Part shown: positions 5,459 through 30,827 of the stretch, one piece after another
How the letters are laid out: every line of letters begins with the position of its first letter
How positions within the stretch are numbered: position 1 is the stretch's first letter
Virus record (IMG/VR): IMGVR_UViG_3300031111_000236
From: an uncultured virus (IMG/VR IMGVR_UViG_3300031111_000236)
Lineage: Duplodnaviria; Heunggongvirae; Uroviricota; Caudoviricetes
Reading direction: 5' to 3' (one strand)
DNA: 64,000 bases
Notes under the pieces: generated by a model
Seen by the model: the letters and a program-made list of their open reading frames with translations, nothing else
Told to the model about the DNA's origin: nothing
The model's database searches: none
Made by a program: the position numbers and the translations under genes

Positions 5459-6355
5459 ATGAAGAGACTCATACTGACCATGACCGTACTTTTATTGATG
5501 ACACTATCTGCCACGATGGGATGTCTGAGTATACCTGGGGTGGACGATGGCGACACCAGGACATCTAACTTCCTTATCAACGTGAACTCGAACTACAACA
5601 TCCGTCCTGGGGTCAATGACATCCTCATCGAGGTCAGGACAGTGAGCAACATACAGAAGGTAGACATCAACTTGGTCCCTGTCGCTTTGGTTGGTAACAG
5701 CGTCCAGAACAGTCAATCTCATACCTTGTACAAGTACCTTCAGGACGTTGAGCTACCGCAAGATATCATTCTGAGAGTGGACGCAAGCGACTACGACTTC
5801 CTCTACGGTAAGTTCCTGGTTCAGGTCATCGGTGAGCGGAAGGTCATAAAGGAAGAGAAGGAGTTCACCGTGCAGTTGAACTCAATGTCTGAGGACCTCT
5901 TGAGGCTTACAGAGTTTGACCCGCAGGTAAGAGTGAGTGTGGACGCACCAGCCGCTATCTACCCAGATACGGTCACAAGCAGGGTGCAAGTAGGCAACAC
6001 CAATAGTAACTCGGTGTCGGTCACATACACTATGGAACCTCTGGCCTACTACGAGATAGATATCTCGGAGAATGATGGTATCTATCCGCTGAAGACTGCA
6101 TCTTCAGGCGTTCTTAAGTTTGGTTTCGAGAGCATAAATGTTCACTCTTACTCAGAGTCTCTCCCGTCTACCTCTGGCAAGCCAGTTCGCAAGCTACAAA
6201 TAGTGGTGGAAGACTTCACGGACAAACCAGTGTATGCTTACGTTAAGCTCACCGTGACAGTCAACGGCAATGACCTGGTTACCCACTATATGTTGATAGG
6301 TAACTGGAAGCTCCCTCAGACTGTCTCAAACGTTAAGATAGGTGGGGTTGCGTAA
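5459..6355 (+). CDS. Putative lipoprotein
   Basis: Signal peptide ending ...SATMGC (lipobox-like); GAGGTG SD. Confidence 0.7.
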   Translation: MKRLILTMTVLLLMTLSATMGCLSIPGVDDGDTRTSNFLINVNSNYNIRPGVNDILIEVRTVSNIQKVDINLVPVALVGNSVQNSQSHTLYKYLQDVELPQDIILRVDASDYDFLYGKFLVQVIGERKVIKEEKEFTVQLNSMSEDLLRLTEFDPQVRVSVDAPAAIYPDTVTSRVQVGNTNSNSVSVTYTMEPLAYYEIDISENDGIYPLKTASSGVLKFGFESINVHSYSESLPSTSGKPVRKLQIVVEDFTDKPVYAYVKLTVTVNGNDLVTHYMLIGNWKLPQTVSNVKIGGVA

Positions 6356-7869
6356 TGACCCGAAAAGGGTGGACCCAAGACTCCGTAAGGCACGGTCTCG
6401 CATCGAGGGGTATCCCATCGTTCGGGTACAAGGGTCCAGATTTCGTCGAGTTCAAAGATAGGTACGACGAACCAGAGAAGGACTACATCACTCTCCTGAA
6501 TCTCATGGAGAACCCCAAGCCCATTGAGGATAGCAACTACAAGCTCCAGCTCTCGCAACACCTCGCTTGGACCGATGCGGCAAGAGACAATCAAGAGCGC
6601 ATCAAAGACATGGACGTACAACCTGATTTTCTGTTGGATATGACACAAGCGATGTATCTCAATCCTAACCTCACAGCCAACCTCTTGTACGCTCTTATGA
6701 ACGGCAAGATGGGGAATCTGGCTAACAATGACAGTCTTCGAGAGGCCGTGATTATATCCATTATGAACAACGACAAGAACAGCGTGAAGCAGAACTACTT
6801 CGGGGTGCTCAATAGGCTCACACCAGATGAGCGATGGCTACTGAGAGACATCTATGCCAGGAAGCTCAGAGATGTTGACCATCTCGACATGGACGATACC
6901 TTCGCTAAGGAGGTATTGTGTTTGTTCCAGGGTCTGTCTGACGACCAGATAAAACGTCTCTGGGGGGCCATGAAACCCAAGATACTTGTTGGCAACCCGA
7001 GCTTTACCGCCAAGGAGATGGTAAGCAAGCTCGAACGTGCCTTGCGTGTCATGCCTCTGGTGGATGTTTACATAGGGTCGTCGAAACTCATAGGCGACCC
7101 ACATGGATACTTCTACCCGAAGAACGTAGTCATACCAGCGGAGGATACCAACCTCTTGGTGGACCTCTTTAGGTGGGCAAAGATAGAGGACTTCAAGGGT
7201 ACGTCACTTCCAGAGGAAACAGCCAAGGAGCACAGGAGGAATGTTCACGACAACTTCAGAAAGGCACTTTACGCTCTCAATATTGACTGGAATAAACTCC
7301 TGACTAACGATATCAGGTATCACACTATCACCAAGTCGCCTGGGAAGTGGGGTGTGAGAAATATTGACAGTAAGGAGCGAAAGATAAACGCAGACAACAA
7401 AGAACTCCTACAAACAATCAAACTTCTCTTCTCGACTGATGTGGACCGCCTTGAAAATGAGTGGGGTCCACCAGCTCACTATCTCCCACCAGAGCTGAAT
7501 ATGCACATCTCACTTTTGCAGGATACCAGGAAGAGTTACACCAACAGGAACCAGAGTAAGTCTATCTTCAATTCTATCAGCTCTGATTTTGCGAATGTTA
7601 AGAGGCTCAGCACCTGGCTCTACGATATGGGCATATCTTTCGCCGACCTTACCAAAGGGCAACAAAAGCAGTATGCTAAGCTGTACTCTAAGACGGTCAC
7701 GAGGTTGCTCAAGCCATACGTGAAGAGGTATGGCCCCTATGATGACAACGATAAAATTTACTTCAATGGCGTGGATGATAAGGATATAGCGGCCTATCTC
7801 AAGGACCCTATCAAGAACGAACCTTATCACTTTTTTACTGTCAACGAGCGCAGAAGAGAAGGTAAGTAG
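6355..7869 (+). CDS. Leader-tagged PDFLLD-family paralogue (long form)
   Basis: GWTQDSVRHGLASRGIPSFGY leader; QPDFLLD, NDSLREA, LTPDER motifs. Confidence 0.85.
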   Translation: MTRKGWTQDSVRHGLASRGIPSFGYKGPDFVEFKDRYDEPEKDYITLLNLMENPKPIEDSNYKLQLSQHLAWTDAARDNQERIKDMDVQPDFLLDMTQAMYLNPNLTANLLYALMNGKMGNLANNDSLREAVIISIMNNDKNSVKQNYFGVLNRLTPDERWLLRDIYARKLRDVDHLDMDDTFAKEVLCLFQGLSDDQIKRLWGAMKPKILVGNPSFTAKEMVSKLERALRVMPLVDVYIGSSKLIGDPHGYFYPKNVVIPAEDTNLLVDLFRWAKIEDFKGTSLPEETAKEHRRNVHDNFRKALYALNIDWNKLLTNDIRYHTITKSPGKWGVRNIDSKERKINADNKELLQTIKLLFSTDVDRLENEWGPPAHYLPPELNMHISLLQDTRKSYTNRNQSKSIFNSISSDFANVKRLSTWLYDMGISFADLTKGQQKQYAKLYSKTVTRLLKPYVKRYGPYDDNDKIYFNGVDDKDIAAYLKDPIKNEPYHFFTVNERRREGK

Positions 7870-8207: not shown

Positions 8208-9998
8208 ATGAAAGTCCTGAATATAAGGACGGATGAGGTTCCAGCACAGGACCTCTACTCTCTCAATTACTTTCCTCACACTAAGCCGAGGCCACCTCAA
8301 GTAAAGCTCTTACACCTTTTGGAGAAATATGTGGACCACTTCGATAATATCTTTCTACAGGCTCCGCCTGGTATTGGTAAGACGGCCATAGCAGATGCCT
8401 TCTCAAAGTTCTTTATCAGCAGGAAGGAGGGTTCTAAGGCTATCGTACTCGTAGGTCGTAAACAGCTCCTGACACAGTATCGTGATGGTTACAAGTACCA
8501 GGTCTTGATGGGGCAGAATGAGTATCCCTGCATAGCTACTCCCACTCTCATCGACCCTGACGGTATGGGTCAAGGTGTCCGTGTAGATGCGGCCCCGTGC
8601 AAGTACCTCAAGAAGAGGCAGTTCAAGTGTCCTTATGACCCAAGAAATAAGGAGAGCAATGAGGATGTCAAGTGTCCCTATTGGGACCTCCGAGAACGTA
8701 TCGCCAAGATGCCTCTGGCCGCAGTGTCCACGTTGTCTGCTCTGAATATACCTGCTCTTCACGGGCGGGACCTGCTTGTCTGGGACGAGGCAGACAACGC
8801 TTTCCAGGACCTTGTTTCCTATTTCACAGTCAATCTGCATGAGGAGTACTATGCCAAGAGGTACAGGTTCAAGTTCACCAGGGGTATTGACAAGGACAGA
8901 AGGCCCTTGGTCGGTAAGAAGGATTATTGGGACACGGTTATACCTCACCTCATATCTGAGGTAGAGCACGAGATGGACGCAGTTCTCGAAGAACAGCGTA
9001 AGCACATAGCTGGTGGGAACATCAATGAGCGATACCTAATGAACGTCGAGTTCAGGGTTCACAATCTCACAAAAAGGTTATCGAAACTCGTGGAGATACG
9101 TGATATGCTCATGAATTTGCGTCGCAACTTTGTGATATCTCACAACTACGACCCTGACAAGCCAGTAGACTACATGAACTTAGAGTTCAAACCAGTCTCC
9201 GTGGCGAGTGCCGTGAGCGATATACTAACGTCCATAGGGGGTACAAGGGTCTTCATGGGGGCTACGCTCAATCCTCCCCTCTTGGCGAGACAGTTGGGTG
9301 TAGACCCTCAGAGGTCTCTGGTCATCAACTATGTTAAGCACCCTTATCCAGTCGATAACAGGCTCGTCAATCTGGTCCCCGTTGGCTCTATGTCCTACAG
9401 GAACAGGAATGATACTCTCCCCATTCTTGTTAGCGTGATTAATGGGATATTGTCTCATCACAAGGGCCAGGCAGGTCTCATACTTCCTAATTCTAAGTGG
9501 CTTGAGGTAGAGATAGCAAACGGTATAGTGGATGATAGTCGTATTCTTCGTCACAAGAGCACGTCATTCTCGCTCAATAACGCTATCAAGCGTTGGGAGG
9601 GTAGCAGGGATAAGGTCATCATCTCTACGTACATCTCGATGGGCTTTGACGGCTCTCACGGCGATTTCATCATGATACCGAAGGTAGGTTATGCCTCACT
9701 CGGTGACCCGTGGGTACAAGCACGCCTCGCTATCAGAGGGTTTGGGGAACGTGAGTACCAGTGGAACGCTATCAAGGATGCTATCCAGAAGTCGCTGAGA
9801 AGCACGAGGAGCGAGACCGATAAGTCGGTCATCTATCTACTCGATTCTGATTATCTCGCTCTACTCAAAAGGAATAGGGAAGACTGGCTGGAGTGGTACT
9901 TGGAAAGTATCAGGGTTATGTCACCAAGCGACTTCATGCCGAAAGAGGTGGAGCCGCATCGCCCTTCTGCCTTCTCTTCTCGACCTTCGCTCTCTTGA
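8208..9998 (+). CDS. XPD/Rad3/DinG-like SF2 helicase
   Basis: Q motif FPHTKPRPPQ, Walker A APPGIGKT, four Cys in the FeS region, DEAD, MGATL; motif VI is degenerate (QKSLRSTRSETD). Confidence 0.85.
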   Translation: MKVLNIRTDEVPAQDLYSLNYFPHTKPRPPQVKLLHLLEKYVDHFDNIFLQAPPGIGKTAIADAFSKFFISRKEGSKAIVLVGRKQLLTQYRDGYKYQVLMGQNEYPCIATPTLIDPDGMGQGVRVDAAPCKYLKKRQFKCPYDPRNKESNEDVKCPYWDLRERIAKMPLAAVSTLSALNIPALHGRDLLVWDEADNAFQDLVSYFTVNLHEEYYAKRYRFKFTRGIDKDRRPLVGKKDYWDTVIPHLISEVEHEMDAVLEEQRKHIAGGNINERYLMNVEFRVHNLTKRLSKLVEIRDMLMNLRRNFVISHNYDPDKPVDYMNLEFKPVSVASAVSDILTSIGGTRVFMGATLNPPLLARQLGVDPQRSLVINYVKHPYPVDNRLVNLVPVGSMSYRNRNDTLPILVSVINGILSHHKGQAGLILPNSKWLEVEIANGIVDDSRILRHKSTSFSLNNAIKRWEGSRDKVIISTYISMGFDGSHGDFIMIPKVGYASLGDPWVQARLAIRGFGEREYQWNAIKDAIQKSLRSTRSETDKSVIYLLDSDYLALLKRNREDWLEWYLESIRVMSPSDFMPKEVEPHRPSAFSSRPSLS

Positions 9999-10521: not shown

Positions 10522-10525
10522 CGTA

Positions 10526-11666: not shown

Positions 11667-11700
11667 CTTGATATCACCACTACCAAGATTGAACCTGAGA

Positions 11701-11820: not shown

Positions 11821-12738
11821 ATGTCGTGGCCATGCAATCCCTCTCGCCACTCCCTCTCAGCCAGGGGTATCCCGAGTCAGTCATCGTTCGGTTACAAGCC
11901 AGACAGTGTTAAGAATAATATCTGGAACGGTAACAGCCTTACCAATGGTGAGATTCTGACTTTCTTGGAGCACCCAGAGAAGGTTGAGGCTGTTATCGGC
12001 CCTGCCCCTCTTGAGTTGCCTACCCTTTTGATGTCGAAGAAGAGTATGCCTACGAAAAAGGGTATCGAGAGTATGGAGAATTTTGCGGCCATGTATGGCA
12101 AGAGTCTCAAGACTTCCGAGGTGAAGCCAGACATATTTCTCGACCTGATAGCAAACAGTCGGCACGGTCTAAATCATGTATTGTATTATCTTTCTAACGG
12201 TGACCCCGAGGTCATACGCCAGAACCAGAGTCTGAGAGAGGCAATAATGGTGTACATACTGGCGAATCTTCAGAATCGGAGCTTCTGGGAGAGGAGGGAC
12301 TACCTTTATATCAATACTCTATCTGCGGAGGAGAAGTACATAATCGTGCCCAAGCTCTTTGATAACTTTGATGCGGCTGAGTACGTTGGCGACAAGTACA
12401 ACGACCTTTTCAAACTAACGCTGGTGGGAACCAATGACAAGGAGTACGCACTCTTGCGCCCTATGTTCGATAAGTACGGTAAGATTTATAATCTCAAGCC
12501 AGTGCTGAGCGATAAATTCGCAGAGCATCATAGCAAGACGAAATACATCTTCCACAGGGGGTTCTCGGGTCCTACAGACGTAGTTAAAGCTGACTTTGTA
12601 TCTACTGGTGATGGGGAGCCTTATTTCACTGCACCGAGAGACCTTTTATGGAATCATCATACGCACGTGAACATGAGACAGCTACCCCCTCAGATTAAGG
12701 CTGAGCTGGAGAAGGAGTGGCAGGAGTCAGATAAATGA
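11821..12738 (+). CDS. Leader-tagged PDFLLD-family paralogue
   Basis: MSWPCNPSRHSLSARGIPSQSSFGYKP; KPDIFLD; NQSLREA; leaderless transcript after TTATATAA. Confidence 0.85.
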   Translation: MSWPCNPSRHSLSARGIPSQSSFGYKPDSVKNNIWNGNSLTNGEILTFLEHPEKVEAVIGPAPLELPTLLMSKKSMPTKKGIESMENFAAMYGKSLKTSEVKPDIFLDLIANSRHGLNHVLYYLSNGDPEVIRQNQSLREAIMVYILANLQNRSFWERRDYLYINTLSAEEKYIIVPKLFDNFDAAEYVGDKYNDLFKLTLVGTNDKEYALLRPMFDKYGKIYNLKPVLSDKFAEHHSKTKYIFHRGFSGPTDVVKADFVSTGDGEPYFTAPRDLLWNHHTHVNMRQLPPQIKAELEKEWQESDK

Positions 12739-13736
12739 CATGGGACAGTGAGAGTATGAGGCACGGCCTCTGTCGTAGAGGCATCTCAAACGCACGGTCC
12801 TTCGGGTATCGTCCAAACTTTGTCCTTGTGAGAGTGCCTGGTGAGAGTCATGAGATGAGTAACAGCCAGCTATCTAAGTTCTTGACTGACCCAGAGGCTG
12901 TAGAAGGTATAGAGAACAAGTACCTGTCGATACCAGCCATAGGTCACACACAGGAATCAGCGGTCACGGACAAGAGCATAGAAAAGATGCAAGACTTTGA
13001 GAAGAACTATTGGGGTAAGCTCAAGGACTCAGATATAGAGCCAGATTTCTTTCTTGACCTTTACGGTATGGAGGAGTATCGTGGTCTGAGCTATGTGCTC
13101 TACTACATATCTAATGGTAACGCTGACAAGCTAAGGGAGCATGAGAGTATTCGTTCTGCTATTATTGTCTACATGATGACCAACGCAGACAGTAAACTCT
13201 TCTGGGAACGTGGTGACTACGAGTACATAGCGGTGCTCACGCCTCAAGAAAAAGCGATTCTCATACCCAAGCTCTTGAAGAGTGTTCGTAGTGTCGGTGA
13301 ACTGCATGGTATGTTCAGATGGGAGTCTATGGTGAACAACATATTCATGCTTTCTACCGCTGGTCTTGATGACTCTAACTATAAGCTCATCAAGCACTTC
13401 TTCGAGAAATTCGCAGAGGATAACCCAGATATGATGGAGTATAGTGACCAGTTATTTGGGAAGGCAGACTATCCGCAGAATATCGAGCTGATGGACAAGT
13501 ATCACGACAAGACCAAGGTCATCTACTGGAAGTATTATAACGATGAGTTCAAGAGAGAGCGTGTAGGTTACAAGGTGGTTGCTGACACTGACGACATCGA
13601 GTTGTACAAGGAGATGAACCTTTTCGGTGCACCGAGCAATCTCAGAGGTTGGACCGAGAACCACTTCAATGATGAACAGGCCCCCAGGCTCGTGTGGCGT
13701 GAGATATCCGAGCCTAACTTCAGGAGGAAGCTCTGA
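12735..13736 (+). CDS. Leader-tagged PDFLLD-family paralogue
   Basis: MTWDSESMRHGLCRRGISNARSFGYRP; EPDFFLD. Confidence 0.85.
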   Translation: MTWDSESMRHGLCRRGISNARSFGYRPNFVLVRVPGESHEMSNSQLSKFLTDPEAVEGIENKYLSIPAIGHTQESAVTDKSIEKMQDFEKNYWGKLKDSDIEPDFFLDLYGMEEYRGLSYVLYYISNGNADKLREHESIRSAIIVYMMTNADSKLFWERGDYEYIAVLTPQEKAILIPKLLKSVRSVGELHGMFRWESMVNNIFMLSTAGLDDSNYKLIKHFFEKFAEDNPDMMEYSDQLFGKADYPQNIELMDKYHDKTKVIYWKYYNDEFKRERVGYKVVADTDDIELYKEMNLFGAPSNLRGWTENHFNDEQAPRLVWREISEPNFRRKL

Positions 13737-14734
13737 TGTCCTGGGATAAGGAACCCGCTCGCCACTCTCTGTCATCAAGAGGTATAGGGCACGCCAAGTC
13801 GTTTGCGCTCAAGCCGAACATGGTGCGACTCGCTATGAAGAAGGAGGATGTCAAGGCTGGAAACCAGGCCGACCTTCTGAGGTTTGCTACTAACCCCGAG
13901 AGTTATGAGTCTCGCTACAGCCAGGACAAACCTCTCTGGTTCAAATGGAACCCTAAGAAGGCCAACAACTACAGGAAGCAACAGAACGACAGGTTCAGAA
14001 GTGCGAAGTTCGAACCAGACTTCCTATTGGATATGTTCGAGCCAAACGAGAAAGAAAGGTATGGCTCTGGCGGCGACCTCTTGTACCAGTTGACTGCTGG
14101 TGACTCTGTTGAGTTCTTGAGGAACCAGTCACTGAGAGATGCGGTTATTGTCCACCTACTCGCCAACAGTGATAAAAACCACTTCTGGTGGAATCAGGAT
14201 TGGGCCTACATAGGTATGCTGTACAAGCACGAGCGACTCGCTGTGATTGACAAGATGCTCAAGGGTCTCGTAAAACAAGAGCCGAGGTTGGCTTTTCTGT
14301 ATCTTGAGAAGTTCTATGCCGCCGCTCTCTGTGGTCTCTACAAGGAGGGCGACCTGATACGTAAGAAATTCCAAGCCGCTGGTAAGACCCTACCCGATAT
14401 GGAGGTCAAGAGTGGCGGTATGTGGGGCAACCCACAAGGTTACTGGATGTCAGTAGTGAACAATGATGATAGCGTTTACTACAAAGAGCGTGACAGACTC
14501 AAGGTTATGATAGGTCACCCTGACTCCATCTGGGGTGCGGACGTTAACATCATACCGACTATTCACTTCACTGGCAAGACATACTATGAACTCATGCTTG
14601 CGATACACGGGGGTCATGAAGGAGTTCATGACTACATCGAGGAGATGAAAGACAAGATACATCGGAGAGGGTGGTTCTTTCCAGTACAGGAGATGCCTAT
14701 GGACATGAGACGTGCCTTGGAGGTGAAAGAGTGA
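13736..14734 (+). CDS. Leader-tagged PDFLLD-family paralogue
   Basis: MSWDKEPARHSLSSRGIGHAKSFALKP; EPDFLLD. Confidence 0.85.
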   Translation: MSWDKEPARHSLSSRGIGHAKSFALKPNMVRLAMKKEDVKAGNQADLLRFATNPESYESRYSQDKPLWFKWNPKKANNYRKQQNDRFRSAKFEPDFLLDMFEPNEKERYGSGGDLLYQLTAGDSVEFLRNQSLRDAVIVHLLANSDKNHFWWNQDWAYIGMLYKHERLAVIDKMLKGLVKQEPRLAFLYLEKFYAAALCGLYKEGDLIRKKFQAAGKTLPDMEVKSGGMWGNPQGYWMSVVNNDDSVYYKERDRLKVMIGHPDSIWGADVNIIPTIHFTGKTYYELMLAIHGGHEGVHDYIEEMKDKIHRRGWFFPVQEMPMDMRRALEVKE

Positions 14735-15768
14735 CCTGGCATAGGGACCCTCTTGGGCATGGTCTTACGTCTCGTGGTGTTCAAATTAAAAGGTCGTTTG
14801 GGTACAAGCCCGATTTCATACACCAGAATCACGTTAAGCTCGATGGCAAGGATGTCAAACCTTTACCCCCTCGTGAGATGTACGAGTTGATGACCGACCC
14901 CGAGTCTGTCGAAAATCGGTATAGGGTCGTATTCCTTTCCACCAATTTCGAGCGTGGTCCTGGCCTCCCACGAACAGCGGAGGCGAAAGAAGAGATGGCG
15001 AAGTTTGCTCGCAAGTACGGCGAGGCCATGAAGACTGTAGATGTCGAACCAGATTTCCTGCTTGATACCATAAAGGTAAAAGGCTTGGGGAACGAAGGTG
15101 GGGCGGCCCCTGTACTGTACTTTGTCAGCAATGGCAATCCAGATATCATAGCGTCGAACGAAAGTCTTCGAACGGCTATCATAGTTTACTTCCTATCGGA
15201 GGCTGACGACCAGTACTTCTGGCGTGATAAGAACTTTGCGTATCTGAGTGCCTTGTCACCAGAGGAGCGCATGGTAGTAGTCCCAAGACTGATTAGGAAA
15301 CTCAGAGACATAGGTGCTAATGACCCTCGGGTATATAGTAGACATCTCAAGGACTTCTTCATGGTTTCAACATCTGGCATTGACGATGCGAGCTATAAGG
15401 TCATACGCAAGGATTTCGTCGGCTTGGTCGTGGAGCTTGAGAACGACGAAGACTTCATGAAGCGCAAAAGTTCAGATGCTCTTATCAAGAACATGACCAA
15501 CCTCTTGGAGACAATGGACTACTCGCACTCCAAGACCAAGACTATTTTCTACAGGAGATACGCTAACAGGATTCGCTTCAGTACTGTAGTCGATACTGAT
15601 GATGAGAAAGACCGCAAGTACATGAGAGATGCCTACCCAATCTTACTCACTAACGAGTCACAGGTTTATCAGGCTCTGCATGGTGATATTACCGAGTGGC
15701 AGAAAGTAGCTCATATCAACAGGGACCAGTTGCCGAAACTGGTAGAGAAAAATCTCTTCGAGGAGTAG
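14731..15768 (+). CDS. Leader-tagged PDFLLD-family paralogue
   Basis: GTG start at 14731 (GGAGGTGA SD, GTGA overlap): MTWHRDPLGHGLTSRGVQIKRSFGYKP; EPDFLLD. Confidence 0.85.
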   Translation: MTWHRDPLGHGLTSRGVQIKRSFGYKPDFIHQNHVKLDGKDVKPLPPREMYELMTDPESVENRYRVVFLSTNFERGPGLPRTAEAKEEMAKFARKYGEAMKTVDVEPDFLLDTIKVKGLGNEGGAAPVLYFVSNGNPDIIASNESLRTAIIVYFLSEADDQYFWRDKNFAYLSALSPEERMVVVPRLIRKLRDIGANDPRVYSRHLKDFFMVSTSGIDDASYKVIRKDFVGLVVELENDEDFMKRKSSDALIKNMTNLLETMDYSHSKTKTIFYRRYANRIRFSTVVDTDDEKDRKYMRDAYPILLTNESQVYQALHGDITEWQKVAHINRDQLPKLVEKNLFEE

Positions 15769-15790: not shown

Positions 15791-16756
15791 ATGACATGGG
15801 ATAGGGAGCCAGCACGACACTCGCTTTCGAGGCGTAGGATACCGAACCAGGCTTTCGGTTATAAGCCAAACTTTGTTCACTATGCCCCAAACATATTCAG
15901 TAGGGACGACAAAGAACGAAGGATGCTATCTACTCAAGATGTTTACACACTGATGACGGACCCGACTACTATCGAGAGCAAGTACACTGAGGTAGCTGTA
16001 CCCATGCGGATAGGTGCGGACCTTCGTGACAAGTTCATGACCATATTCAAGGAGTCGTATCGGAAGAAGATGGTAGACGCTGATATTCAACCCGACTTCC
16101 TCTTGGATACATATCAGCGTAATGCAGGGACTCCCACAGGTGGAGGTGCATCTCCGTTCCTCTATTTCATATCAGGCGGCAACGGTAACGTGCTTCGTAA
16201 GAACGAGAGTATAAGGGAGGCCATCCTGGTCTATATGCTCGCATACGGCGATAAAGGGTTCTTCTGGGACAACGGGGAATACATCTACATCGGTGTCCTG
16301 TCACCGCAAGAGAAGATGGTAGTTTTACCCAAGCTCCTGGACATGATGAAGAGGTACGTTGACACCACAGGGAAGTTAGACACGTACCAATATCACATAG
16401 CTAAGCTCTTATCTCATACGATGGCTGGTGTCAACGATAAGGATTATGCTGTTCTCAGGAAGATGTTTTCAGACTTCATGAGTCCTATGACGAACAGTAA
16501 AGTACCGCCTTTCATGAAGGCCGCCAGGTATTATGAGTGGGAAGTTCAAGGTATGGACGAACATCACAAGCGCACTAAGGTGGTCTACTGGATACCCCTA
16601 AAGAAGGACGGTATAGACAGCACAGTAGTACCCAATACCAACGACGAAGAGATATACGAGAGTATGTTGTCCTGGTATTCGGCCAGTGATATTGATTTTT
16701 ACTCTCATTTAAACAAGAACCAGATACCAAAACTTTCAAGGAGAGGGTTAGAGTGA
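15791..16756 (+). CDS. Leader-tagged PDFLLD-family paralogue
   Basis: MTWDREPARHSLSRRRIPNQAFGYKP; QPDFLLD. Confidence 0.85.
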   Translation: MTWDREPARHSLSRRRIPNQAFGYKPNFVHYAPNIFSRDDKERRMLSTQDVYTLMTDPTTIESKYTEVAVPMRIGADLRDKFMTIFKESYRKKMVDADIQPDFLLDTYQRNAGTPTGGGASPFLYFISGGNGNVLRKNESIREAILVYMLAYGDKGFFWDNGEYIYIGVLSPQEKMVVLPKLLDMMKRYVDTTGKLDTYQYHIAKLLSHTMAGVNDKDYAVLRKMFSDFMSPMTNSKVPPFMKAARYYEWEVQGMDEHHKRTKVVYWIPLKKDGIDSTVVPNTNDEEIYESMLSWYSASDIDFYSHLNKNQIPKLSRRGLE

Positions 16757-17625
16757 CGTGGACAAAAGACCAGGAACGTCACAGGATGGCAAGCAGGTCA
16801 ATAAGAAGCAAGATGGGTACAAGGTCTTTACCCCCTCTTGACCCGAGGGTATTCGCTGTGCAGGTAATCGAAAAGCAGACAAGTAGCCAAGAGATGCTGA
16901 AGAGTGACGAGTTACCTGTTCCTGCTCCTGTTAATGAGTATATCCACACAGTCATGACCAACTCGGGAATGGACGCTGAAATGAACGAGGACGGGACTAT
17001 CACCGCCTATCTCACGGAGGAACAGTACAGTGAGCTGAAGACGTTGCTCACAGCTCTCGGAGTGTCGGCTCTTTCCGTAGCGAGCGTAGTTTCGAGAGAG
17101 CGCAAAGCGAGAGGTCGTCAGAAGACTATCCAAACCAGGACAGAGAGAGCACGTCTTACATCGAAACAGATGCAGAACTTCGAGAAGAGGCTACAAATGA
17201 CAGCTAAGCAGGAGAGGTTGACCAAGGCGCAAATACAGAAGGTTATTCGCCAGACTCGTATCATGAATAAGAACGCACAGCTCACTACGGAGGCCGCCGC
17301 TAACGCCGCCAAGAGAGGACATCTGACAGTCAAGGAGGCCCGTATAGTCAGTGGTCAGATACAGAAGGCTGGTGTGACATCTACAAAGGTGTCTCAGGGT
17401 GCGAGAAACAAGGTCCATATCAACACAGCTCGGATGACAAATGCTGAGCGAGCAAGAGTACAGAAGAGGCTCACTAACGTGGCATGGATGAAACATCGTA
17501 GAGGTGTTAGGAGAAGGCGTGGTGTTGCTGTCGGGTTGATACCTGGTGACATGAATCTCGCTGACGTAGTATATCTACCTATTAACCAGGTAGTCACAGC
17601 AACTGGTACGAGGGCTATCGGTTAG
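16753..17625 (+). CDS. Leader-tagged protein with a very basic C-terminal half
   Basis: MTWTKDQERHRMASRSI leader; short hydrophobic segment followed by an R/K/Q/T-rich region. Confidence 0.8.
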   Translation: MTWTKDQERHRMASRSIRSKMGTRSLPPLDPRVFAVQVIEKQTSSQEMLKSDELPVPAPVNEYIHTVMTNSGMDAEMNEDGTITAYLTEEQYSELKTLLTALGVSALSVASVVSRERKARGRQKTIQTRTERARLTSKQMQNFEKRLQMTAKQERLTKAQIQKVIRQTRIMNKNAQLTTEAAANAAKRGHLTVKEARIVSGQIQKAGVTSTKVSQGARNKVHINTARMTNAERARVQKRLTNVAWMKHRRGVRRRRGVAVGLIPGDMNLADVVYLPINQVVTATGTRAIG

Positions 17626-18404: not shown

Positions 18405-19280
18405 ATGGCCTGGGAGTCCGATAGAGAGGGTCATCGACTGGCCCGTGCAGGTATAGGTAGAGCGATACCCCGCTCCAGGACTCCTGCTTTTTCTTCTTCG
18501 CATGGTTACACCAAGAAGTACTGGCACATAGTCGTGAATGACAAGGCCAAATGTGTACCAGATGCTATGGTGGATAAGCAAGGCAATCGCAGTACTTATC
18601 TTTCCAAAGACCCAGGCCAAAAGGGGGGTACTGTGATTGTCTTGTGCAAGCTCAAGGAGGACGGTCCTACCAAGAAACAGAAGGTCCTGGTCGAGGACAA
18701 AGATTGGGATATGAAAAACGGTAGGCTCGTGCCAACCACAGCCCGTGGTCGTAGACAGGCCGATGATTTCAAAAGTCAGGGTATGTGGCCTCTTACAACC
18801 GATAAGTACGTCATACACGGGCCAGGATTTTCTCTCCCTCTTGACACAGCCTCGAAGATAACGGAGCTTTCTGACAAGAACCAAGAGCTATCCTTCGAGC
18901 GGCAGGAAACGTTCATAGAGCTACAGAAGCTCAAGTCGAGGATATTCGGGCTACAGACTGCCATTGGCGAGCTAAACCGTAACAAGAGCGACATGAGAGC
19001 GAACAGGGCACTTGAGTGGGTCACCTACATAGATGAGACCTTTGTCTCCCTGCGTTTGCAGTCGGAGGAAGTAGAGAAGTATCTATCGGAGGACGTTAAC
19101 CCCGATATGAAACACTCAATGGACGAGCTACAGAACGAGATGGACGATGTTGACCTCAAGCTGACGAACAGCGGAGTTCTCTCCAAGTTGGATGTGAAGT
19201 TAAGGTCTCTCGGGAAATCGAAACTGGATAAGGAGGCCAAAGTCCTCTTGGACCAGTATCTCGATATAGTGGGGTCTTGA
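18405..19280 (+). CDS. Leader-tagged protein with a C-terminal coiled coil
   Basis: MAWESDREGHRLARAGI leader; heptad-rich C-terminus. Confidence 0.8.
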   Translation: MAWESDREGHRLARAGIGRAIPRSRTPAFSSSHGYTKKYWHIVVNDKAKCVPDAMVDKQGNRSTYLSKDPGQKGGTVIVLCKLKEDGPTKKQKVLVEDKDWDMKNGRLVPTTARGRRQADDFKSQGMWPLTTDKYVIHGPGFSLPLDTASKITELSDKNQELSFERQETFIELQKLKSRIFGLQTAIGELNRNKSDMRANRALEWVTYIDETFVSLRLQSEEVEKYLSEDVNPDMKHSMDELQNEMDDVDLKLTNSGVLSKLDVKLRSLGKSKLDKEAKVLLDQYLDIVGS

Positions 19281-19281: not shown

Positions 19282-20436
19282 ATGGTTGGTAACTTTGGTT
19301 GGAGAGGTCAGTCAATGCGTCATGCTCTCGCTCGGGCAGGTATTCCTAATACCAAGTCGTTCGCTATCTACAACGGATATGACCCAACGAAAGAAGAGGA
19401 GTTCATCAAGATAGTTACGACATCGGAGCTTGCTAATGGTAAACTGAGTGAGAACAAAATAGCGGAGAAGATAAACCAAGACTTCCAGGACCCTGTGACT
19501 TTTGCCGACAACTTCGCAGTGGCTATATTCGCCATCGAAAATGAGCTGAAAAAAGGTACTAAGTTGGGTACTTCGAGTATCAGACAGCAGATGTTGAACC
19601 TCTACAAGATATTACACTCATGGGGTTCAATGTACGCATGGGCGCAGGTAGATGCAAGTATGAGTCCTGATGAGAAGCGAGCTGTTCGTGAGGCACATCG
19701 TGACAGGATAGACCAGTACGCATACCTCACTACTGGTATATCCCCTCTACTCATACAGAAGCTATTCAATATACATAACAAGGTGGAAGACTCGGCGACA
19801 CAGAACGCTGTGCTGGAGCTAATCGGTCTCATAATCAAGAAGACACCTGACTTCAACGACCCGAGCCACCTTAAGGCCGTGTCTAACATAGAGCCGTTTG
19901 GGACTATGTTCTACGATATGAAAAGAGATGCAATGTACAACGACCCAGAGGTGTGGGCGAAGTACTTCAAAAGCGACGACCCAAGGGTGAGAGCTTATCT
20001 GATTTATTGGGTAGGCAGAGATAGAGTCAGAAGGAACAGGGGAGATAAATCACATTGGTACACTATCAGGGGGGCCAACGATAGGGAGATTACTGGCCTT
20101 TTCAAGATGCTCAAGGAGTGGTACGAGAGTACGGGAGCGGATTACACAGGTGACCTTTTGGAGGACTTCGTACTCAGTGAGTACTTCCTCATCAAGAGGG
20201 ACTATCAGACAATGAAGAGTATCAGTAGCTCTAACTCGACATTGAACGCACGGCTCGCAGGGTTCGGTCTCGATGCTATCGGTAGGCGTGGTGAGTATGA
20301 TATCGTTAAGACCTATCTGAAGTCACACTATAATAATAACATAGACCAGTACAAGATAGACTACGATACTGGCCTGGTTTCTACGAACGAAAAAGTGAAG
20401 GAGATAATGAAGGACGTTTACGACAACGGGTGGTAA
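19282..20436 (+). CDS. Leader-tagged helical protein, not PDFLLD family
   Basis: GWRGQSMRHALARAGIPNTKSFA. Confidence 0.8.
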   Translation: MVGNFGWRGQSMRHALARAGIPNTKSFAIYNGYDPTKEEEFIKIVTTSELANGKLSENKIAEKINQDFQDPVTFADNFAVAIFAIENELKKGTKLGTSSIRQQMLNLYKILHSWGSMYAWAQVDASMSPDEKRAVREAHRDRIDQYAYLTTGISPLLIQKLFNIHNKVEDSATQNAVLELIGLIIKKTPDFNDPSHLKAVSNIEPFGTMFYDMKRDAMYNDPEVWAKYFKSDDPRVRAYLIYWVGRDRVRRNRGDKSHWYTIRGANDREITGLFKMLKEWYESTGADYTGDLLEDFVLSEYFLIKRDYQTMKSISSSNSTLNARLAGFGLDAIGRRGEYDIVKTYLKSHYNNNIDQYKIDYDTGLVSTNEKVKEIMKDVYDNGW

Positions 20437-21106: not shown

Positions 21107-21178
21107 CCTACATGAAGCGAGAGGGCCTCGTAATCGGGGTCAGACCCTCGCCAATGGTAGGTATAGTAGGTGATGTGC

Positions 21179-21667
21179 TTGACATGGGAAGGAGAGCCAG
21201 AGAGACACAAGATGGCCCGAGAGGGCATCAAGTCCGTAAATATCAACAAGTACCAAGGCGATTGGTACGAAATAGCTTCATTTCCAAACTGGTTCCAGAG
21301 GAACTGTTCCAACTCCAAAGCGAACTACGAGCTGTCCGATGGGAAAGTACTCGTGACAAACACTTGCGTCAAGAGCAGTGGAAAGACAAGCTCTATCCGT
21401 GGCGACGCTTATCCAGCAAACAAGAGGAACAGCGTCCTCAAGGTCGGGTTCCCACCGCTCAAGTTTATCAGGTCGGACTACGTGGTGGAGTACTTGGACC
21501 CCGACTATCAATACGTGATAGTTGGGTCGCAGGACAGGAAGTACCTATGGTTCCTGGGTAGGAAGCCATACGCCAACAAGAAGCAATACAATCTCATGCT
21601 CAAGATAGCCAAGCGTAAGGGGTACGATGTATCCAATCTACGCAAGACCAGGAGGAAAATCAAGTGA
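21179..21667 (+). CDS. Lipocalin (Blc/ApoD-like) carrying the N-terminal leader
   Basis: YQGDWYEIA (GxW), LDPDYQYVIVG, YLWFLGR; TTG start after AGGTGA gives MTWEGEPERHKMAREGI. Confidence 0.85.
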   Translation: MTWEGEPERHKMAREGIKSVNINKYQGDWYEIASFPNWFQRNCSNSKANYELSDGKVLVTNTCVKSSGKTSSIRGDAYPANKRNSVLKVGFPPLKFIRSDYVVEYLDPDYQYVIVGSQDRKYLWFLGRKPYANKKQYNLMLKIAKRKGYDVSNLRKTRRKIK

Positions 21668-22308
21668 ACGGTAACAAGAGTGGATTCCAGAACGAACCTC
21701 TAAGACATGGGCTCTCAAGACTTGGGATAGCTCACAAGAAGAGCTTCGCAATGCACACCCCAGAAAGCGTATACGGTAAGGGTCCGTGGGAGGTATGGTA
21801 TGTGAGACGTGAGCACTCAGTGTCACACAGCCACGGTGAGGATTTCTTCAAGAAACTACATGATGAGCTTGAGCGTGACCAGGACAAGATAAGGAAGGAG
21901 AACAAGCTCAGGCTTTACGATAATGTGGTACGTGACGAGAGCGGGAATATGTATGCCTCTATCAACCCCAATGACCTTGCCAGAACTCACATTAAGATAG
22001 CAAGCATCAAGGTCCCTGATGATGTCTTAGCGGACGGTGAGAAGCGCACTCTTGAGTGGATATGGGCAAAGATGCAAGGCGAGAGCTGGTCGCCGAAGGG
22101 TGACGCTCGTGACTTCATCAGGTGCAAGGGTGCGTCCCATACTTCCATGTCTATGGGCGACCTGATAGTCACTCCCAACGGTGATGTTATGATGCCTAAG
22201 AGTACCTATGGGTTCAAGAGTATCGGCAAGCGAGAGGATGACCCTTGCCCGTCCGACCCAAAAGACTCGTTCGGGGCGAAGAAAAAGAAGAGGAAGGGGT
22301 GCAAGTGA
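21664..22308 (+). CDS. Leader-tagged protein, possible YodL-like domain
   Basis: GFQNEPLRHGLSRLGIAHKKSFA; HTSMSMGDLIV resembles the YodL signature; basic tail after a second SFG. Confidence 0.7.
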   Translation: MNGNKSGFQNEPLRHGLSRLGIAHKKSFAMHTPESVYGKGPWEVWYVRREHSVSHSHGEDFFKKLHDELERDQDKIRKENKLRLYDNVVRDESGNMYASINPNDLARTHIKIASIKVPDDVLADGEKRTLEWIWAKMQGESWSPKGDARDFIRCKGASHTSMSMGDLIVTPNGDVMMPKSTYGFKSIGKREDDPCPSDPKDSFGAKKKKRKGCK

Positions 22309-26957: not shown

Positions 26958-27033
26958 CTGGACTCCTCTTTTTCTTTTTGTATATAAGTCTTGCTAACAA
27001 ACGATATATAACCAGGCTAACATTGTATTCTCA

Positions 27034-27990
27034 ATGCCGTGGCCACAGGAATCTAATCGCCATAGTCTGGCATCACTCTCAGTACCTAACACGAGGTCGT
27101 TCTCCTACAGGCCAGACTTTGTTACCTACAATTCGAACACCTACCCTGTGGGAGTTCTCAACTCTGATGATATATTCAGATTCATGAAGGACCCAGAGTC
27201 TGTGGAATCGGCTTACGACACAGACGTATTCATACCAGCGGCTGGTATCGGACCTAAAGAGAGCGAATACATGGAAAGTCTGGAGGCCATGTGGGATTTC
27301 TGGAATAAGTACGGTGACCAGATGGATTCAGTCGAGGTAGAGCCAGACTTTCTGCTTGATGCGCCTATCGGTGGTGCTTCACACCTTCTATACTTCATTA
27401 GCAATGGCAACCCAGATGTTCTTGCTCATAGCCAGAGCATCAGAGCGGCTATCATTGTCTACCTCTTGAGGCACGCTGGTGAGCCAGAGTTCTGGGAGGA
27501 ACACGAGTACCAGTATGTAGCTGTCCTGTCACCAAGTGAGAAGCTACTCATTGCACCGAAGCTCCTGGAGGGTTACGAGACAGCTACAGCCCAGGAGAAG
27601 TGGGCAAGAGCACTCGACAACGCTATCGGTGTTTGCTTCTCTTACATGGTCGCTGGCCTTGACAATAATTACTATGAAATGCTCAGAACTAAGTTCGATA
27701 GGGTCTTTCTAACTGTTTTCAATGACCGTAATATAGTACCACTGTACGACTTCCATAGACGCAAGATGAACAAATGGCATACCAAGACCAAAGTGGCCTT
27801 CTGGCGTTACTACGATGAAAGTGATATGTCCGACAAGGTAGACTCGCAAGTCGTACCCTACGTTTGGACTGACCACGATTACAATCTCTTGAGGCAGGAT
27901 TACTGTAATGTCAGTGAGATACATAGTAGCAAAATCATACACGTCAACAAGGACCAGTTCAGTGATGTCACGAGGGGGTATTTGAGATGA
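27034..27990 (+). CDS. Leader-tagged PDFLLD-family paralogue
   Basis: MPWPQESNRHSLASLSVPNTRSFSYRP; EPDFLLD. Confidence 0.85.
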   Translation: MPWPQESNRHSLASLSVPNTRSFSYRPDFVTYNSNTYPVGVLNSDDIFRFMKDPESVESAYDTDVFIPAAGIGPKESEYMESLEAMWDFWNKYGDQMDSVEVEPDFLLDAPIGGASHLLYFISNGNPDVLAHSQSIRAAIIVYLLRHAGEPEFWEEHEYQYVAVLSPSEKLLIAPKLLEGYETATAQEKWARALDNAIGVCFSYMVAGLDNNYYEMLRTKFDRVFLTVFNDRNIVPLYDFHRRKMNKWHTKTKVAFWRYYDESDMSDKVDSQVVPYVWTDHDYNLLRQDYCNVSEIHSSKIIHVNKDQFSDVTRGYLR

Positions 27991-29429
27991 CGTGGCCAAA
28001 AAATCCGAACAGGCACAGTCTGAGTTCGAGAGGCATACCGAATCGAGCTTTCGGTATAGCCAATAAGGACCTTATCAAGATGGTAGGGTACAACAAGACT
28101 GTTGATGAGGAAAAAGAGGCGAGAGCCCTGTTTCAGCTCATGGTAGACCCGAGTACGGCTGAAAGACAGTTCGATAGGGTTTATGTCGATACTGATGACG
28201 GATACATCAGACAGTTTAGTCGTGCTGTCGAGGAGATTGGTAGAGACAGAGATATACAGCCAGACTTCTTGTTCGATGCGAGAGACTTTATCTGGGATAA
28301 CTATCGGTATGAGAGGTTGAACGAACTCCTCTATATCATACATCAAGGTCACTCTCCAGCGGCTCTGCATAGTGATTCTTTCAGGGCGAGCTTAGCGGCT
28401 TTCATGTTGTCTATGCTCCAGGATGATGAGGTAGGCCATATTGACTGGTCTGTTGCTATCCAACTGATGTCACCAGAGGAGAAGAAAATCGTCTTCCCTA
28501 AGTATATCGAGAGGTTCGGCCCCTGGTATACAAAAGAAATGGTAGCGTTCATAAGCGATGTTCCTGAATCCCAGACTGACTTCTACATGAGACAGCTTGA
28601 CCGCCTCTTGGTGAATGATACACGATACGACAAGAAGCGTAGAGATGAAATACTTGCTATCAAAAAGCTCACAAAGAAGCTGGTTATGAACTATACCACT
28701 GCATATTACAAGCAAAAACTTGAGTCTTACATCAGACCAAAGAAGGTCTTGAAGAACAAGAAGGAGGCAGAGCTGTACTTTGAGCTAACTGAGTCGATGC
28801 ACCCCAGAGTGCTTAATAGGTTCGAAGAGCATCAGGATACTCACGTCTACTATATGAGGAATCACATGAAGAAGTCTCTGAGGGCGGTTCAGAAGCTCAT
28901 AGACCGTTTTATCGACTTCCAGATAAAAGGGAGCAACCTTTACTGTGCTGTCGATAGTGGCAACAGTGGTCGAGGACCTCTTGCCGACTACTTACAGCAT
29001 GGCTTTGCTATAGAGGAAAAATCGAAGACGGATAAAAGACCAGTACCGTGGCACATAGCTCACAATATCGGTAAGACCAGTGTTCATATAGAAAAGGATG
29101 AGAACTCATTGTACAGTACGAAGTCGAGTACTAAGGTGGAGATTGAGCCGTACTGCTATAATGGTGAGCTGACCAATTTCACACTACCTAATATCGACAA
29201 GTTCAGTGATATCTTCTTCGGTAGGAAATGGAGTGGCATACGAGACCCTGTTGACAAGAGCGAGGTTGAGGCGGCTTATGAGTACTATATCCTATCCTGG
29301 GTAAAAAAGGCCAGGAAGATGGAAATATCAGCAAGCTCAAGCCTGGTCGAGACACAACCAGAGGGTTACGTCTTGAAGTACCAGGGTGATGACGGGTATC
29401 TATGGCTCCCAGGCGAGGAGGGGGAATAA
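27987..29429 (+). CDS. Leader-tagged PDFLLD-family paralogue (long form)
   Basis: MTWPKNPNRHSLSSRGIPNRAFGI; QPDFLFD. Confidence 0.85.
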   Translation: MTWPKNPNRHSLSSRGIPNRAFGIANKDLIKMVGYNKTVDEEKEARALFQLMVDPSTAERQFDRVYVDTDDGYIRQFSRAVEEIGRDRDIQPDFLFDARDFIWDNYRYERLNELLYIIHQGHSPAALHSDSFRASLAAFMLSMLQDDEVGHIDWSVAIQLMSPEEKKIVFPKYIERFGPWYTKEMVAFISDVPESQTDFYMRQLDRLLVNDTRYDKKRRDEILAIKKLTKKLVMNYTTAYYKQKLESYIRPKKVLKNKKEAELYFELTESMHPRVLNRFEEHQDTHVYYMRNHMKKSLRAVQKLIDRFIDFQIKGSNLYCAVDSGNSGRGPLADYLQHGFAIEEKSKTDKRPVPWHIAHNIGKTSVHIEKDENSLYSTKSSTKVEIEPYCYNGELTNFTLPNIDKFSDIFFGRKWSGIRDPVDKSEVEAAYEYYILSWVKKARKMEISASSSLVETQPEGYVLKYQGDDGYLWLPGEEGE

Positions 29430-30827
29430 TTGGGATGGGATAACGAGCCAGCGAGACATTCCTTGTCCCGACTTGGTATAGACAATAGGGCCTTCGGTAT
29501 CAAAGGTCCCGACTTCGTGAAACCAGTAGATGGAGATAGGTTCTCAAGTGATGTAGACAGAGAACTAAACGCACAAGACCTTTGGAATCTGCTACAACAA
29601 CCGTCCACCGTTGAGAGGCAGAAAGATGTTATATACATCGGCACTGGTTGGGACGAAGCCTACACACGTAAAATGACTGAGATAAGAGGTGATACTCTAC
29701 CATCTATCGAGTTCGAACCCGACTTCCTGTTCGACGCTGAGGACTACATCCTTTATAATGAGACCAATCTCAACACCTACCTTGGTCAGATATGTGGTGG
29801 CGACTTCCAACAGCTTACCAATAACGACAGCTTCAGAGCCAGTTTGATGGCTTTCATGCTCACCATGTTTGAAAGTCCCGATAAGGGTAAGCAGGTTGAT
29901 TGGGCAATGTCCATTAGTCTTCTAAGACCATACGAGAAACGTATCCTCTTCCAGAAGTACTTGAAGATGATAGAAGATGACCTCTATCACTTGGAGCGCA
30001 ACAAATACAGAGAGGTTTTGGCCTTCTTCGCAGATGTGCCTAAAGAGTACCAAGCCCTTTACACCAGTCAATTAGACTTTCAGTTCCGTGACACTGATGA
30101 ATATCAGGAGGGGGAGCGTGAAAAAATCAAGGAAATCATGAAACTGGCCCCCAGACTTGATATAGGTGCAGTACAGCATGGTAGATGGTCTCTATTTCAG
30201 GTAAAGCCCAAGGAACCCCTCTTGAGGAAGAAGGACGCTGATATTTATTACCAGATACAGAACATAAGGGACCCAGAGTACTCTCTGCCTTACATGAGGA
30301 CCACTGAGAACTATATGAGGAGGTTCTCGAAGAAGAGTAAGGACGAGCTAAAGATATTCCTGCGTGAGCTTGTTACAGCACAGATACAAGCGGCGGAAAC
30401 CAAATGCAAATCCGAACACGGCGGTGATACCAAGGGTATTCAGGAATATGACAGGAAGTGTGGGAAGTTCTGGGGTGATATCGTAGAGAAGCCTCTGTTA
30501 TGCAATGCTACTGACAATCTGATGGAGCCAGCTTGGAGAAACAAGAGCGGTAAGAGCATGGATTTCTATGGTGGTTGTTCTTATTATGGTGGTGAGTTGG
30601 AGAGGGTTAGCATCCCGAGCATAGATGATTTCACAGACACTCTATTCTTACAGAAGTGGTCAGATACTAACAACGAGGACGACAAAAAGGACATGGAATA
30701 CTTCTACGAGTACTATGTGAGGACTTTCAGGAACAGGGCGAAAAATAGGAAGAAGTCGAAGTGGAGGTTCTATGTCAACAGCCAGCCAGATGGGTACGAA
30801 CTCCCGAGTGACCTGGAATCAGATTAG
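29430..30827 (+). CDS. Leader-tagged PDFLLD-family paralogue (long form)
   Basis: MGWDNEPARHSLSRLGIDNRAFGI; EPDFLFD; C-terminus aligns with the previous gene (Y.GEL...P.ID.F.D..F..KWS, QP.GY). Confidence 0.85.
   Translation: MGWDNEPARHSLSRLGIDNRAFGIKGPDFVKPVDGDRFSSDVDRELNAQDLWNLLQQPSTVERQKDVIYIGTGWDEAYTRKMTEIRGDTLPSIEFEPDFLFDAEDYILYNETNLNTYLGQICGGDFQQLTNNDSFRASLMAFMLTMFESPDKGKQVDWAMSISLLRPYEKRILFQKYLKMIEDDLYHLERNKYREVLAFFADVPKEYQALYTSQLDFQFRDTDEYQEGEREKIKEIMKLAPRLDIGAVQHGRWSLFQVKPKEPLLRKKDADIYYQIQNIRDPEYSLPYMRTTENYMRRFSKKSKDELKIFLRELVTAQIQAAETKCKSEHGGDTKGIQEYDRKCGKFWGDIVEKPLLCNATDNLMEPAWRNKSGKSMDFYGGCSYYGGELERVSIPSIDDFTDTLFLQKWSDTNNEDDKKDMEYFYEYYVRTFRNRAKNRKKSKWRFYVNSQPDGYELPSDLESD

Follow-up and report, generated by a model that had tools for sequence, protein, structure and literature searches.

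The DNA analysed here (the window) is a stretch of 64,000 nucleotides from an uncultured virus recorded in IMG/VR as IMGVR_UViG_3300031111_000236 and assigned to the Caudoviricetes; it represents 64 kb of a 184,795-bp contig, and these 64 kb are the part that the analysis covered. According to our analysis, the window encodes a family of nine paralogous proteins whose extreme N terminus, a short leader, also occurs on six proteins that are otherwise unrelated to them, one of which contains a lipocalin domain.

The nine-member family and its N-terminal leader

The gene set was defined from the listing of open reading frames (ORFs) and from an all-against-all blastp comparison of the window ORFs of at least 80 aa, and genes are named here by the position of their first nucleotide (Table 1). 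All nine family ORFs lie on the plus strand and all 36 of their pairs match at E values of 7.9e-8 or lower, the least similar pair being 11821/29430 (E 7.9e-8) and the closest ones 27987/29430 (E 3.7e-63, over the full length) and 12735/15791 (E 1.6e-55). This agrees with a preliminary description of the same DNA, which had placed nine paralogues at these loci. For the fifth gene of the family, the longest ORF opens at 14671 and blastp homology begins at its residue 21; because of this onset of homology and of a GGAGG located seven bases upstream, its start was assigned to the GTG at 14731, in agreement with the public gene call P0003 (345 aa).

In the alignment of the nine sequences, the columns P53/E57, P103/D104/D108, S138/R140, and E172 (12735 numbering) are invariant, and they correspond to the motifs L..P..[VI]E, PDFLLD, S.R.A, and SP.EK named in the preliminary description. 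The motifs H..TK and H.N..Q occur in exactly five members, 11821, 12735, 14731, 15791, and 27034, the number that had been given before. Six of the nine members (305 to 345 aa) can be aligned from end to end, with the last third of 13736 diverging; the long members 6355, 27987, and 29430 resemble the others by blastp across the first ~180 residues only. As had been claimed, 6355, 13736, and the 27987/29430 pair have C termini that are distinct from the five-member type and from one another. In 6355, which is the second gene of the operon behind the promoter element at 5394, the N-terminal ~180 aa match the other eight members at blastp E values of 1.7e-9 to 8.5e-19 and the family hidden Markov model (HMM) gives E 2e-60, and its C terminus is without relationship to theirs. 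The preliminary description had also suggested polymorphic effectors built on a common scaffold. Presumed polymorphic toxins are not supported by the gene content, since similarity extends from end to end in six of the nine members, none of the C termini matches a toxin domain of Pfam or PADLOC or an enzyme family (weak matches remain below the cutoff), and neither cognate immunity genes nor an immunity-like partner pattern are present directly downstream, where the family genes abut or overlap one another with no small ORFs in between.

The most conserved segment of the family is its extreme N terminus, where M1, W3, H10, L12, and F23 are invariant in all nine members. This leader of ~20 to 30 residues follows the consensus M-x-W-x2-[DE]-[PS]-x-R-H-x-L-[SA]-x-R-G-I, often continued by SFGYKPDFV. 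An HMM built from the nine family leaders alone and run over the six-frame window ORFs of at least 30 aa detected five further N termini (E 6e-10 to 0.01) and nothing else below an E value of 1. The leader of 18405, which reaches only E 1.4 with this model, fits by eye; it scores 27.5 bits with an HMM of 22 leaders, a value that is circular since 18405 is included in that model. The same circularity applies to all 15 window leaders, which are part of the 22-leader HMM and score 27.5 to 47 bits with it, versus 9.7 bits for the next best frame. In this way, 15 window ORFs are deemed to carry the leader, namely, the nine family members and six unrelated proteins. The family HMM aligns the latter six across positions 2 to 35 at most (positions 2 to 20 only in the case of 16753) and not in the core. 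The leader of 40666 was found (HMM E 6.7e-4) at residues 23 to 41 of the stop-to-stop frame, with TATA-like boxes upstream. The proteins 16753, 18405, and 40666 are long, basic, and coiled-coil-like, and their weak PADLOC matches to the SMC-like JetC/TmtA are probably compositional. The leader, the six ORFs that carry it without the family core, and the five paralogues outside the window that are discussed below had been missed by the preliminary description.

Among the pairs of identical residues in the leaders, the same codon is used in 204 of 651 (31%), which shows that the leader is under selection as a peptide and not as DNA. Conservation of the region at the RNA or DNA level was rejected on the basis of this value and of the missing Rfam match, the tRNA and Rfam searches of the window having both been negative. 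A search with the leader profile among longer proteins returned only those of the window at E ≤ 3.5e-3, which, with 8000 candidates scored, is weak evidence of absence. A term search of the literature and the passages searched in PMC5434244 and PMC11706807 gave no account of leaders like these in viruses of archaea. The public gene calls for 19282, 21170, and 11821 begin at internal methionines: P0020 (373 aa, 19282) and P0022 (151 aa, 21170) each lose part of the leader, and in P0006 (257 aa, 11821) the leader is missing together with the 48 initial residues. Since three public calls clip their leaders, a signal of this kind is easily missed by automatic annotation.

The protein encoded by 21170 shows that the leader can precede a domain of known family. 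Its residues 23 to 160 match Lipocalin_2 (PF08212; E 9.2e-42, 142.9 bits versus a cutoff of 24, profile positions 1 to 144 of 146), so that the domain begins directly after the leader, and it has PDB matches to Blc and TIL-1. The nearest lipocalins among 5.8 billion proteins are three proteins with 44 to 48% identity. Two of them, P0028 and P0029 (full length, 44 to 45% identity), start with a hydrophobic signal peptide whose end coincides with that of the leader of 21170; the third, P0027, is N-terminally truncated. Since the lipocalin is of independent origin and its relatives do not have the leader, the latter was transplanted at least once, into the slot of a targeting signal. A signal peptide is predicted in none of the 15 leader proteins, and 14 of them have no transmembrane-like segment (16753 is borderline). 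Many of the neighbouring genes encode classical signal peptides or lipoboxes. Moreover, the leader proteins have a median isoelectric point (pI) of 8.6, versus 5.5 for 48 other plus-strand ORFs (Mann-Whitney p 0.009), the latter having been picked mechanically and possibly including non-genes; for the six leader proteins outside the family the median pI is 9.6. As judged from these genes, the leader is a separate, portable module, mutually exclusive with signal peptides.

Predicted fold, rarity, and descent of the family

An AlphaFold2 model of 12735 to 13736, for which a 16-sequence alignment was used, reached a mean predicted local distance difference test score (pLDDT) of 79.3 and a predicted template modelling score of 0.82. 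Residues 1 to 24, with pLDDT values below 50, represent a disordered leader. They are followed by 13 stacked helices (residues 43 to 259), by a beta-hairpin (residues 260 to 283), on which the H..TK motif is located, and by small helices. The predicted body of the family is an alpha-solenoid of ~220 residues capped by a beta-hairpin. The four internal motifs lie at the predicted starts of the helices 53 to 58, 104 to 107, 137 to 150, and 170 to 191, and their S/T/D-P-x-E sequences are like N-capping boxes, which points to a structural role and to no active site; they would represent helix-capping boxes of a repeat scaffold rather than catalytic residues. In the AlphaFold2 model of the long form 27987 (pLDDT 66.3), the solenoid and the hairpin extend to about residue 251 and are followed by a poorly modelled extension, with residues 270 to 386 below a pLDDT of 50.

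The predicted body resembles the ARM/HEAT alpha-solenoids in its right-handed stack of helical hairpins, but the family has no Pfam ARM/HEAT match and its terminal beta-hairpin is atypical of such repeats. In Foldseek searches with the 12735 model, neither PDB nor BFVD contained a match at E ≤ 1e-3. The neighbours returned by an exhaustive VIA fold search were limited to helical repeats of the ARM/HEAT, importin-like, and designed kinds, with Z scores of 5.3 to 7.1, the best of which (Z 7.1, root mean square deviation 7.4, 187 aligned residues) falls, according to the tool, in a range that is uninformative for helical repeats. No model of Pfam, PHROGs, NCBIfam, or PADLOC matches any of the nine members above noise, the subthreshold matches being HPIH (0.04), Sde182 (0.005), Hrs_helical (0.03), and coiled-coil matches to JetC/TmtA, and a PDB profile search with 12735 (A3) gave no match at E ≤ 1. 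The family, which the preliminary description did not recognise, thus remains without a match in these sequence libraries and without a specific fold match; a core that matches a well-characterised family of unrelated function was looked for in both kinds of search, and none was found.

When 1.84 billion cluster representatives were searched with a HMMER profile, 16 proteins reached E ≤ 1e-3, of which nine are the window's own, five are encoded outside the window, and two are foreign. The five, P0010 to P0014 (304 to 355 aa), have cluster members on a 184,795-bp JGI contig, and the contig listed for the window proteins has exactly this length; the two sets also occur together in another assembly, a near-twin of 158,244 bp. 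P0010 to P0014 are not encoded in the window, to which their best tblastn identity is 27%, and would be located on the same genome, outside the window. Together with the nine window members, they would bring the family to about 14 paralogues in one ~185-kb genome, and the previously proposed size of nine would then hold for the window and not for the whole genome. The foreign relatives, P0015 (from a 2,220-bp contig) and P0016 (from seven contigs, the longest of 74,863 bp), are long forms, and the C terminus of each is unrelated to that of any other member.

Other searches for relatives were negative. A tblastn search with one member against GenBank phages gave no match, one member used as the query of a word-based search in 5.8e9 proteins recovered only itself, and two scans of viral contigs revealed no related loci. 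None of the 57 matches to the PDFLLD pattern in metagenome contigs was confirmed as a related locus, the same being true of the genome contigs scanned with RFC, and the best feature score in the ESM Atlas (0.75) was under its noise level. By all these searches, the family is lineage specific and almost absent elsewhere; in its own genome, it is tandemly expanded. A maximum-likelihood tree built on the first 215 residues pairs the neighbours 11821 and 12735 (98/93), 27987 and 29430 (95/89), and P0013 and P0014 (97/94). Its terminal branches amount to ~1 change per site, its deeper forks are without resolution, and long branches lead to P0015, P0016, 6355, 13736, and P0012. The pairing of neighbours and the long terminal branches suggest old tandem duplications followed by strong divergence.

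Replication module, promoter elements, and neighbouring genes

Nearly all of the window is coded on the plus strand, and it contains a replication module (Table 1). The two halves of its split family-B polymerase (PolB) cover positions 21 to 325 and 349 to 798 of PHROG 262. According to PMC5434244, a split polymerase is unique, among archaeal viruses, to the group B magroviruses, and magroviruses carry a full replication block, in parallel to the window; magrovirus RFC is described there as barely similar to cellular RFC, unlike that of the window. In comparisons with GenBank phages, the best matches of RFC are haloarchaeal tailed viruses (33 to 34% identity), and PolB matches essentially only the haloarchaeal tailed virus group (21 to 22% identity). 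The HVTV-1/HCTV-1 group (Druskaviridae, ~102 kb) is the only one that matches PolB over most of its length, and RFC and PolB are neighbours there as they are in the window. However, no leader (best score 10.7 bits) and no family member was detected by our leader and family models in 100 of the 102.3 kb of HVTV-1, and the window's contig is ~80 kb larger. As judged by similarity, the replication genes are archaeal type, and the nearest named viruses are these ~102-kb haloarchaeal siphoviruses. Hence, "large archaeal-type virus-like element" fits the contig better than the jumbo phages whose head-protein families the preliminary description had named for comparison; if it is a virus, then at 184,795 bp it would stand out for its size among the tailed viruses of archaea. 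A halophilic host was rejected, since the median pI of the window proteome is 5.9 and not halophile-like, and a Borg-like element was rejected for want of tandem-repeat arrays in the window. Capsid, portal, terminase, scaffold, and prohead-protease genes were not found in the 64 kb.

A regular-expression scan revealed seven plus-strand intergenic copies of a 30-bp palindromic double-TATA element, TATATAA-N16-TTATATA, which reads TATATAAgtgTTtc...gAAacgTTATATA. Four of the seven copies head leader-bearing operons, the copy at 11767 to 11796 heading the five-gene array and those at 5394, 18352, and 26981 heading the others, and another copy heads the RFC/Mre11-like/PolB operon. At 11767, 18352, and 26981, the right TATA ends 23 to 24 nt before the ATG of the leader-bearing first gene (24 nt in the case of 11821), and the internal genes of the arrays have GGAGG sites. 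This arrangement suggests that the double-TATA elements are archaeal-type promoters of leaderless mRNAs and possibly the site of a common regulator.

Table 1. Leader-bearing genes, replication genes, and promoter elements of the window
Feature	Position	Strand	Description
Family member	6355..7869	+	504 aa; leader, predicted alpha-solenoid core, unique C-terminal ~300 aa
Family member	11821..12738	+	305 aa; opens five-gene array; apparently leaderless mRNA
Family member	12735..13736	+	333 aa; modelled reference
Family member	13736..14734	+	332 aa; C-terminal third divergent
Family member	14731..15768	+	345 aa; start moved from 14671 to GTG 14731
Family member	15791..16756	+	321 aa; closes five-gene array
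Family member	27034..27990	+	318 aa; opens three-gene array; apparently leaderless behind 26981 promoter element
Family member	27987..29429	+	480 aa, long form; C-terminal ~200 aa common only to 29430
Family member	29430..30827	+	465 aa, long form, sister of 27987; TTG start after Shine-Dalgarno site
Leader-only protein	16753..17625	+	290 aa, pI 11.1, K/R/Q-rich, coiled-coil-like; leader HMM E 5.9e-3
Leader-only protein	18405..19280	+	291 aa; N terminus MAWESDREGHRLARAGI; apparently leaderless mRNA behind 18352 element
Leader-only protein	19282..20436	+	384 aa, otherwise orphan; leader HMM E 1.2e-7, family HMM positions 3-35
Leader + lipocalin	21170..21667	+	165 aa; leader HMM E 0.01
Leader-only protein	21664..22308	+	214 aa, pI 9.3; leader HMM E 6.1e-10
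Leader-only coiled-coil protein	40666..41352	+	228 aa; likely start 40666, ORF opens 40624
Helicases	8208, 52639	+	Replication module
Primase/helicase-like protein	31756	+	Replication module
AAA_24/Sak4-like ATPase	34845	+	Replication module
Hef/XPF nuclease with HhH2	42194	+	NF010337, E 1.6e-32
RFC small subunit	43364	+	NF001679, E 9.4e-82
Exonuclease	44361	+	Replication module
Split family-B polymerase	45485-46903 and 47074-48810	+	Exonuclease part and polymerase part, 170 nt apart
Double-TATA elements	5394-5423, 11767-11796, 18352-18381, 23182-23211, 26981-27010, 43156-43185, 59565-59594	+	

Two paralogous small secreted proteins (23298-23804 and 59666-60172, plus strand; E 4.7e-21), each encoded after a double-TATA element, combine an Ig-like CarboxypepD_reg domain with a membrane anchor at the C terminus. 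The second of them precedes a clostripain-like C11 peptidase (60191-62251; PF03415, E 2.6e-48) that bears a signal peptide. This protease was considered as a leader-processing enzyme and rejected, given its signal-peptide-like N terminus and its pI of 4.1. Lipobox-like N termini, which suggest lipoproteins, are present at 5459-6355 (ATMGC), 22245-22640 (WMGC), and 25477-26469 (LAAGC), all on the plus strand, and many further secreted or membrane proteins are acidic, with a pI of ~4 (23835, 54611, and 56418). The predicted set of envelope-directed proteins appears unusually large for a virus-like element. Another small protein (4904-5212, plus strand; 102 aa, pI 11.4, 37% Lys+Arg) has no family match and may bind nucleic acid. 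Long ORFs on the minus strand are confined to two blocks, 1155-2276 and 9934-11741, which have a raised G+C content (0.52 to 0.55), reversed GC and AT skew, and no ORF with a family match.

Possible roles of the leader

The leader is short, disordered, hydrophilic, and strictly N terminal, it is carried by unrelated soluble proteins, and it is interchangeable with a signal peptide; an address tag is therefore its most economical explanation. We tentatively favour the reading of the leader as a portable N-terminal address tag on soluble cargo, with the assembling particle as the likeliest destination, and regard it as possible, though short of probable. In this scheme, a set of proteins that are soluble and in many cases basic would be guided by the leader, in the course of infection, to a single place, most likely the assembling virus particle, as happens with the capsid-targeting sequence (CTS) of phage T4. 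The solenoid family would represent the largest cargo class, and its members would have diversified by duplication because of their contact with host factors after delivery. The destination is what we infer from these features, as are loading, cleavage, formation of the virion, and delivery into the host.

The T4 CTS, as presented in PMC5694885, is an N-terminal propeptide of 10 to 20 residues which directs Alt and the basic internal proteins IPI to IPIII to the inside of the prohead and is afterwards cleaved off; foreign proteins can be targeted by it as well. It has in common with the leader the N-terminal position, otherwise unrelated soluble carriers, portability, and basic cargo; it differs in its looser conservation and in its removal by the prohead protease, neither a cleavage consensus nor such a protease having been found for the leader in the window. 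None of the nine members has a PHROG or Pfam match that would indicate homology to the T4 internal proteins or Alt. As regards gene order, the cargo genes of T4, too, lie apart from its head genes. A second parallel is offered by the giant phages, for which PMC5694885 describes paralogous head or inner-body families (gp93 to gp95 of phiKZ, PF12699; families A and B of SPN3US, B with 20 members). There, too, many diverged paralogues lie in arrays in one large genome, their copy number varies among relatives, and the N-terminal regions are conserved, being propeptides. The hosts of those phages are bacteria, whereas here the host domain appears to be archaeal, and PF12699 matches neither the nine members (Pfam E ≤ 0.1) nor P0010 to P0016 (E ≤ 0.05). 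The preliminary description had proposed internal or ejected virion proteins; this may be so, since, even though the window has no structural gene and the arrays lie in the replication module behind the promoter type of the RFC/PolB operon, the portable leader on soluble, often basic proteins makes addressed cargo the most economical reading.

Several points weigh against the address tag. There is no capsid, portal, scaffold, or prohead-protease gene in the window, so that both the destination and the viral nature of the contig are presumptive. The arrays are located within the replication module and share the promoter element of the RFC/Mre11-like/PolB operon, suggesting that they are coexpressed with replication genes and not with late structural ones. 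No conserved cleavage motif was seen after the leader across the 15 proteins, the T4 CTS is shorter and less conserved than a leader of ~20 to 30 residues with an invariant W and H, and no relation of sequence or fold to known internal head proteins was found in PHROGs, Pfam, or the fold searches. Lastly, the basic bias of the leader proteins was measured against the mechanically picked ORFs mentioned above.

Alternatively, the family may serve host takeover or counter-defence, with the leader docking onto one host or viral machine (a protease, an unfoldase, or a replication factor) and the solenoid, lipocalin, and coiled-coil bodies acting as variable modules that bring different targets to it. 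Large eukaryotic viruses have repeat-protein families with a shared adaptor motif that resemble such a design. We consider this unlikely, although the alpha-solenoid is a generic protein-binding fold, the leader shares the disorder of linear motifs, the paralogues are as deeply diverged as their terminal branches indicate, and the arrays stand in the replication module behind an RFC/PolB-type promoter element. Such a model does not predict that the leader proteins tend to be basic, and the leader of the lipocalin occupies the exact position of a targeting signal, which argues for addressing over docking.

It is also conceivable that the leader binds in trans to the groove of a solenoid paralogue, so that the family assembles into a scaffold or matrix, as an inner body or as a compartment for replication, and recruits the other leader-bearing proteins. 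Solenoid proteins commonly bind extended peptides, every family member has both leader and solenoid, and the invariant acidic residues E57, D104, D108, and E172 of the body could face the conserved R and H of the leader. Those acidic residues, however, stand where helices begin and may have a structural role only, and the leader is undocked from the body in the monomer model (pLDDT < 50); a complex prediction in which a family leader was paired with residues 36 to 333 of 12735, its solenoid body, scored 0.00, which is uninformative in either direction. On balance, such self-assembly seems improbable to us.

We deem it highly improbable that the leader is a nonclassical signal for export or surface targeting that bypasses both Sec and Tat. 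It does replace the signal peptide on a lipocalin, a domain that is usually extracytoplasmic, and many secreted or membrane proteins are encoded nearby. However, the leader is hydrophilic and has no hydrophobic core, and those proteins of the element that are clearly secreted have signal peptides of the usual kind and a pI of ~4, while the leader proteins are neutral to basic. In addition, the best PDB match of the 21170 lipocalin is a plant lipocalin, which is not known to have a signal peptide. Finally, that the shared N terminus has no separate function and is the last remnant of the common descent of 15 diverged paralogues is hardly credible, since, even if the nine members clearly share descent and very fast divergence could erase the remaining similarity, this view is contradicted by a lipocalin (PF08212) of independent origin with leaderless relatives and by a leader that is the best-conserved segment in proteins alignable nowhere else.

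If the leader is an address tag on cargo proteins, the element could be an archaeal-type virus with its own protein-sorting code, in which the leader on at least 20 proteins (15 in the window and five more on the contig) would replace a signal peptide where needed and direct these soluble, fast-evolving proteins to the capsid interior for injection or to a virus-made compartment, and the 14-copy solenoid family would represent a new class of delivered host-interaction proteins; we hold this wider proposal to be rather doubtful. At the level of the fold, the solenoid proteins would form a new family without relatives outside their lineage. Were the address tag real, it would provide a sequence-readable list of the proteins packaged or colocalised by an uncultured archaeal virus, and a testable entry into the little-known process of host takeover by such viruses.

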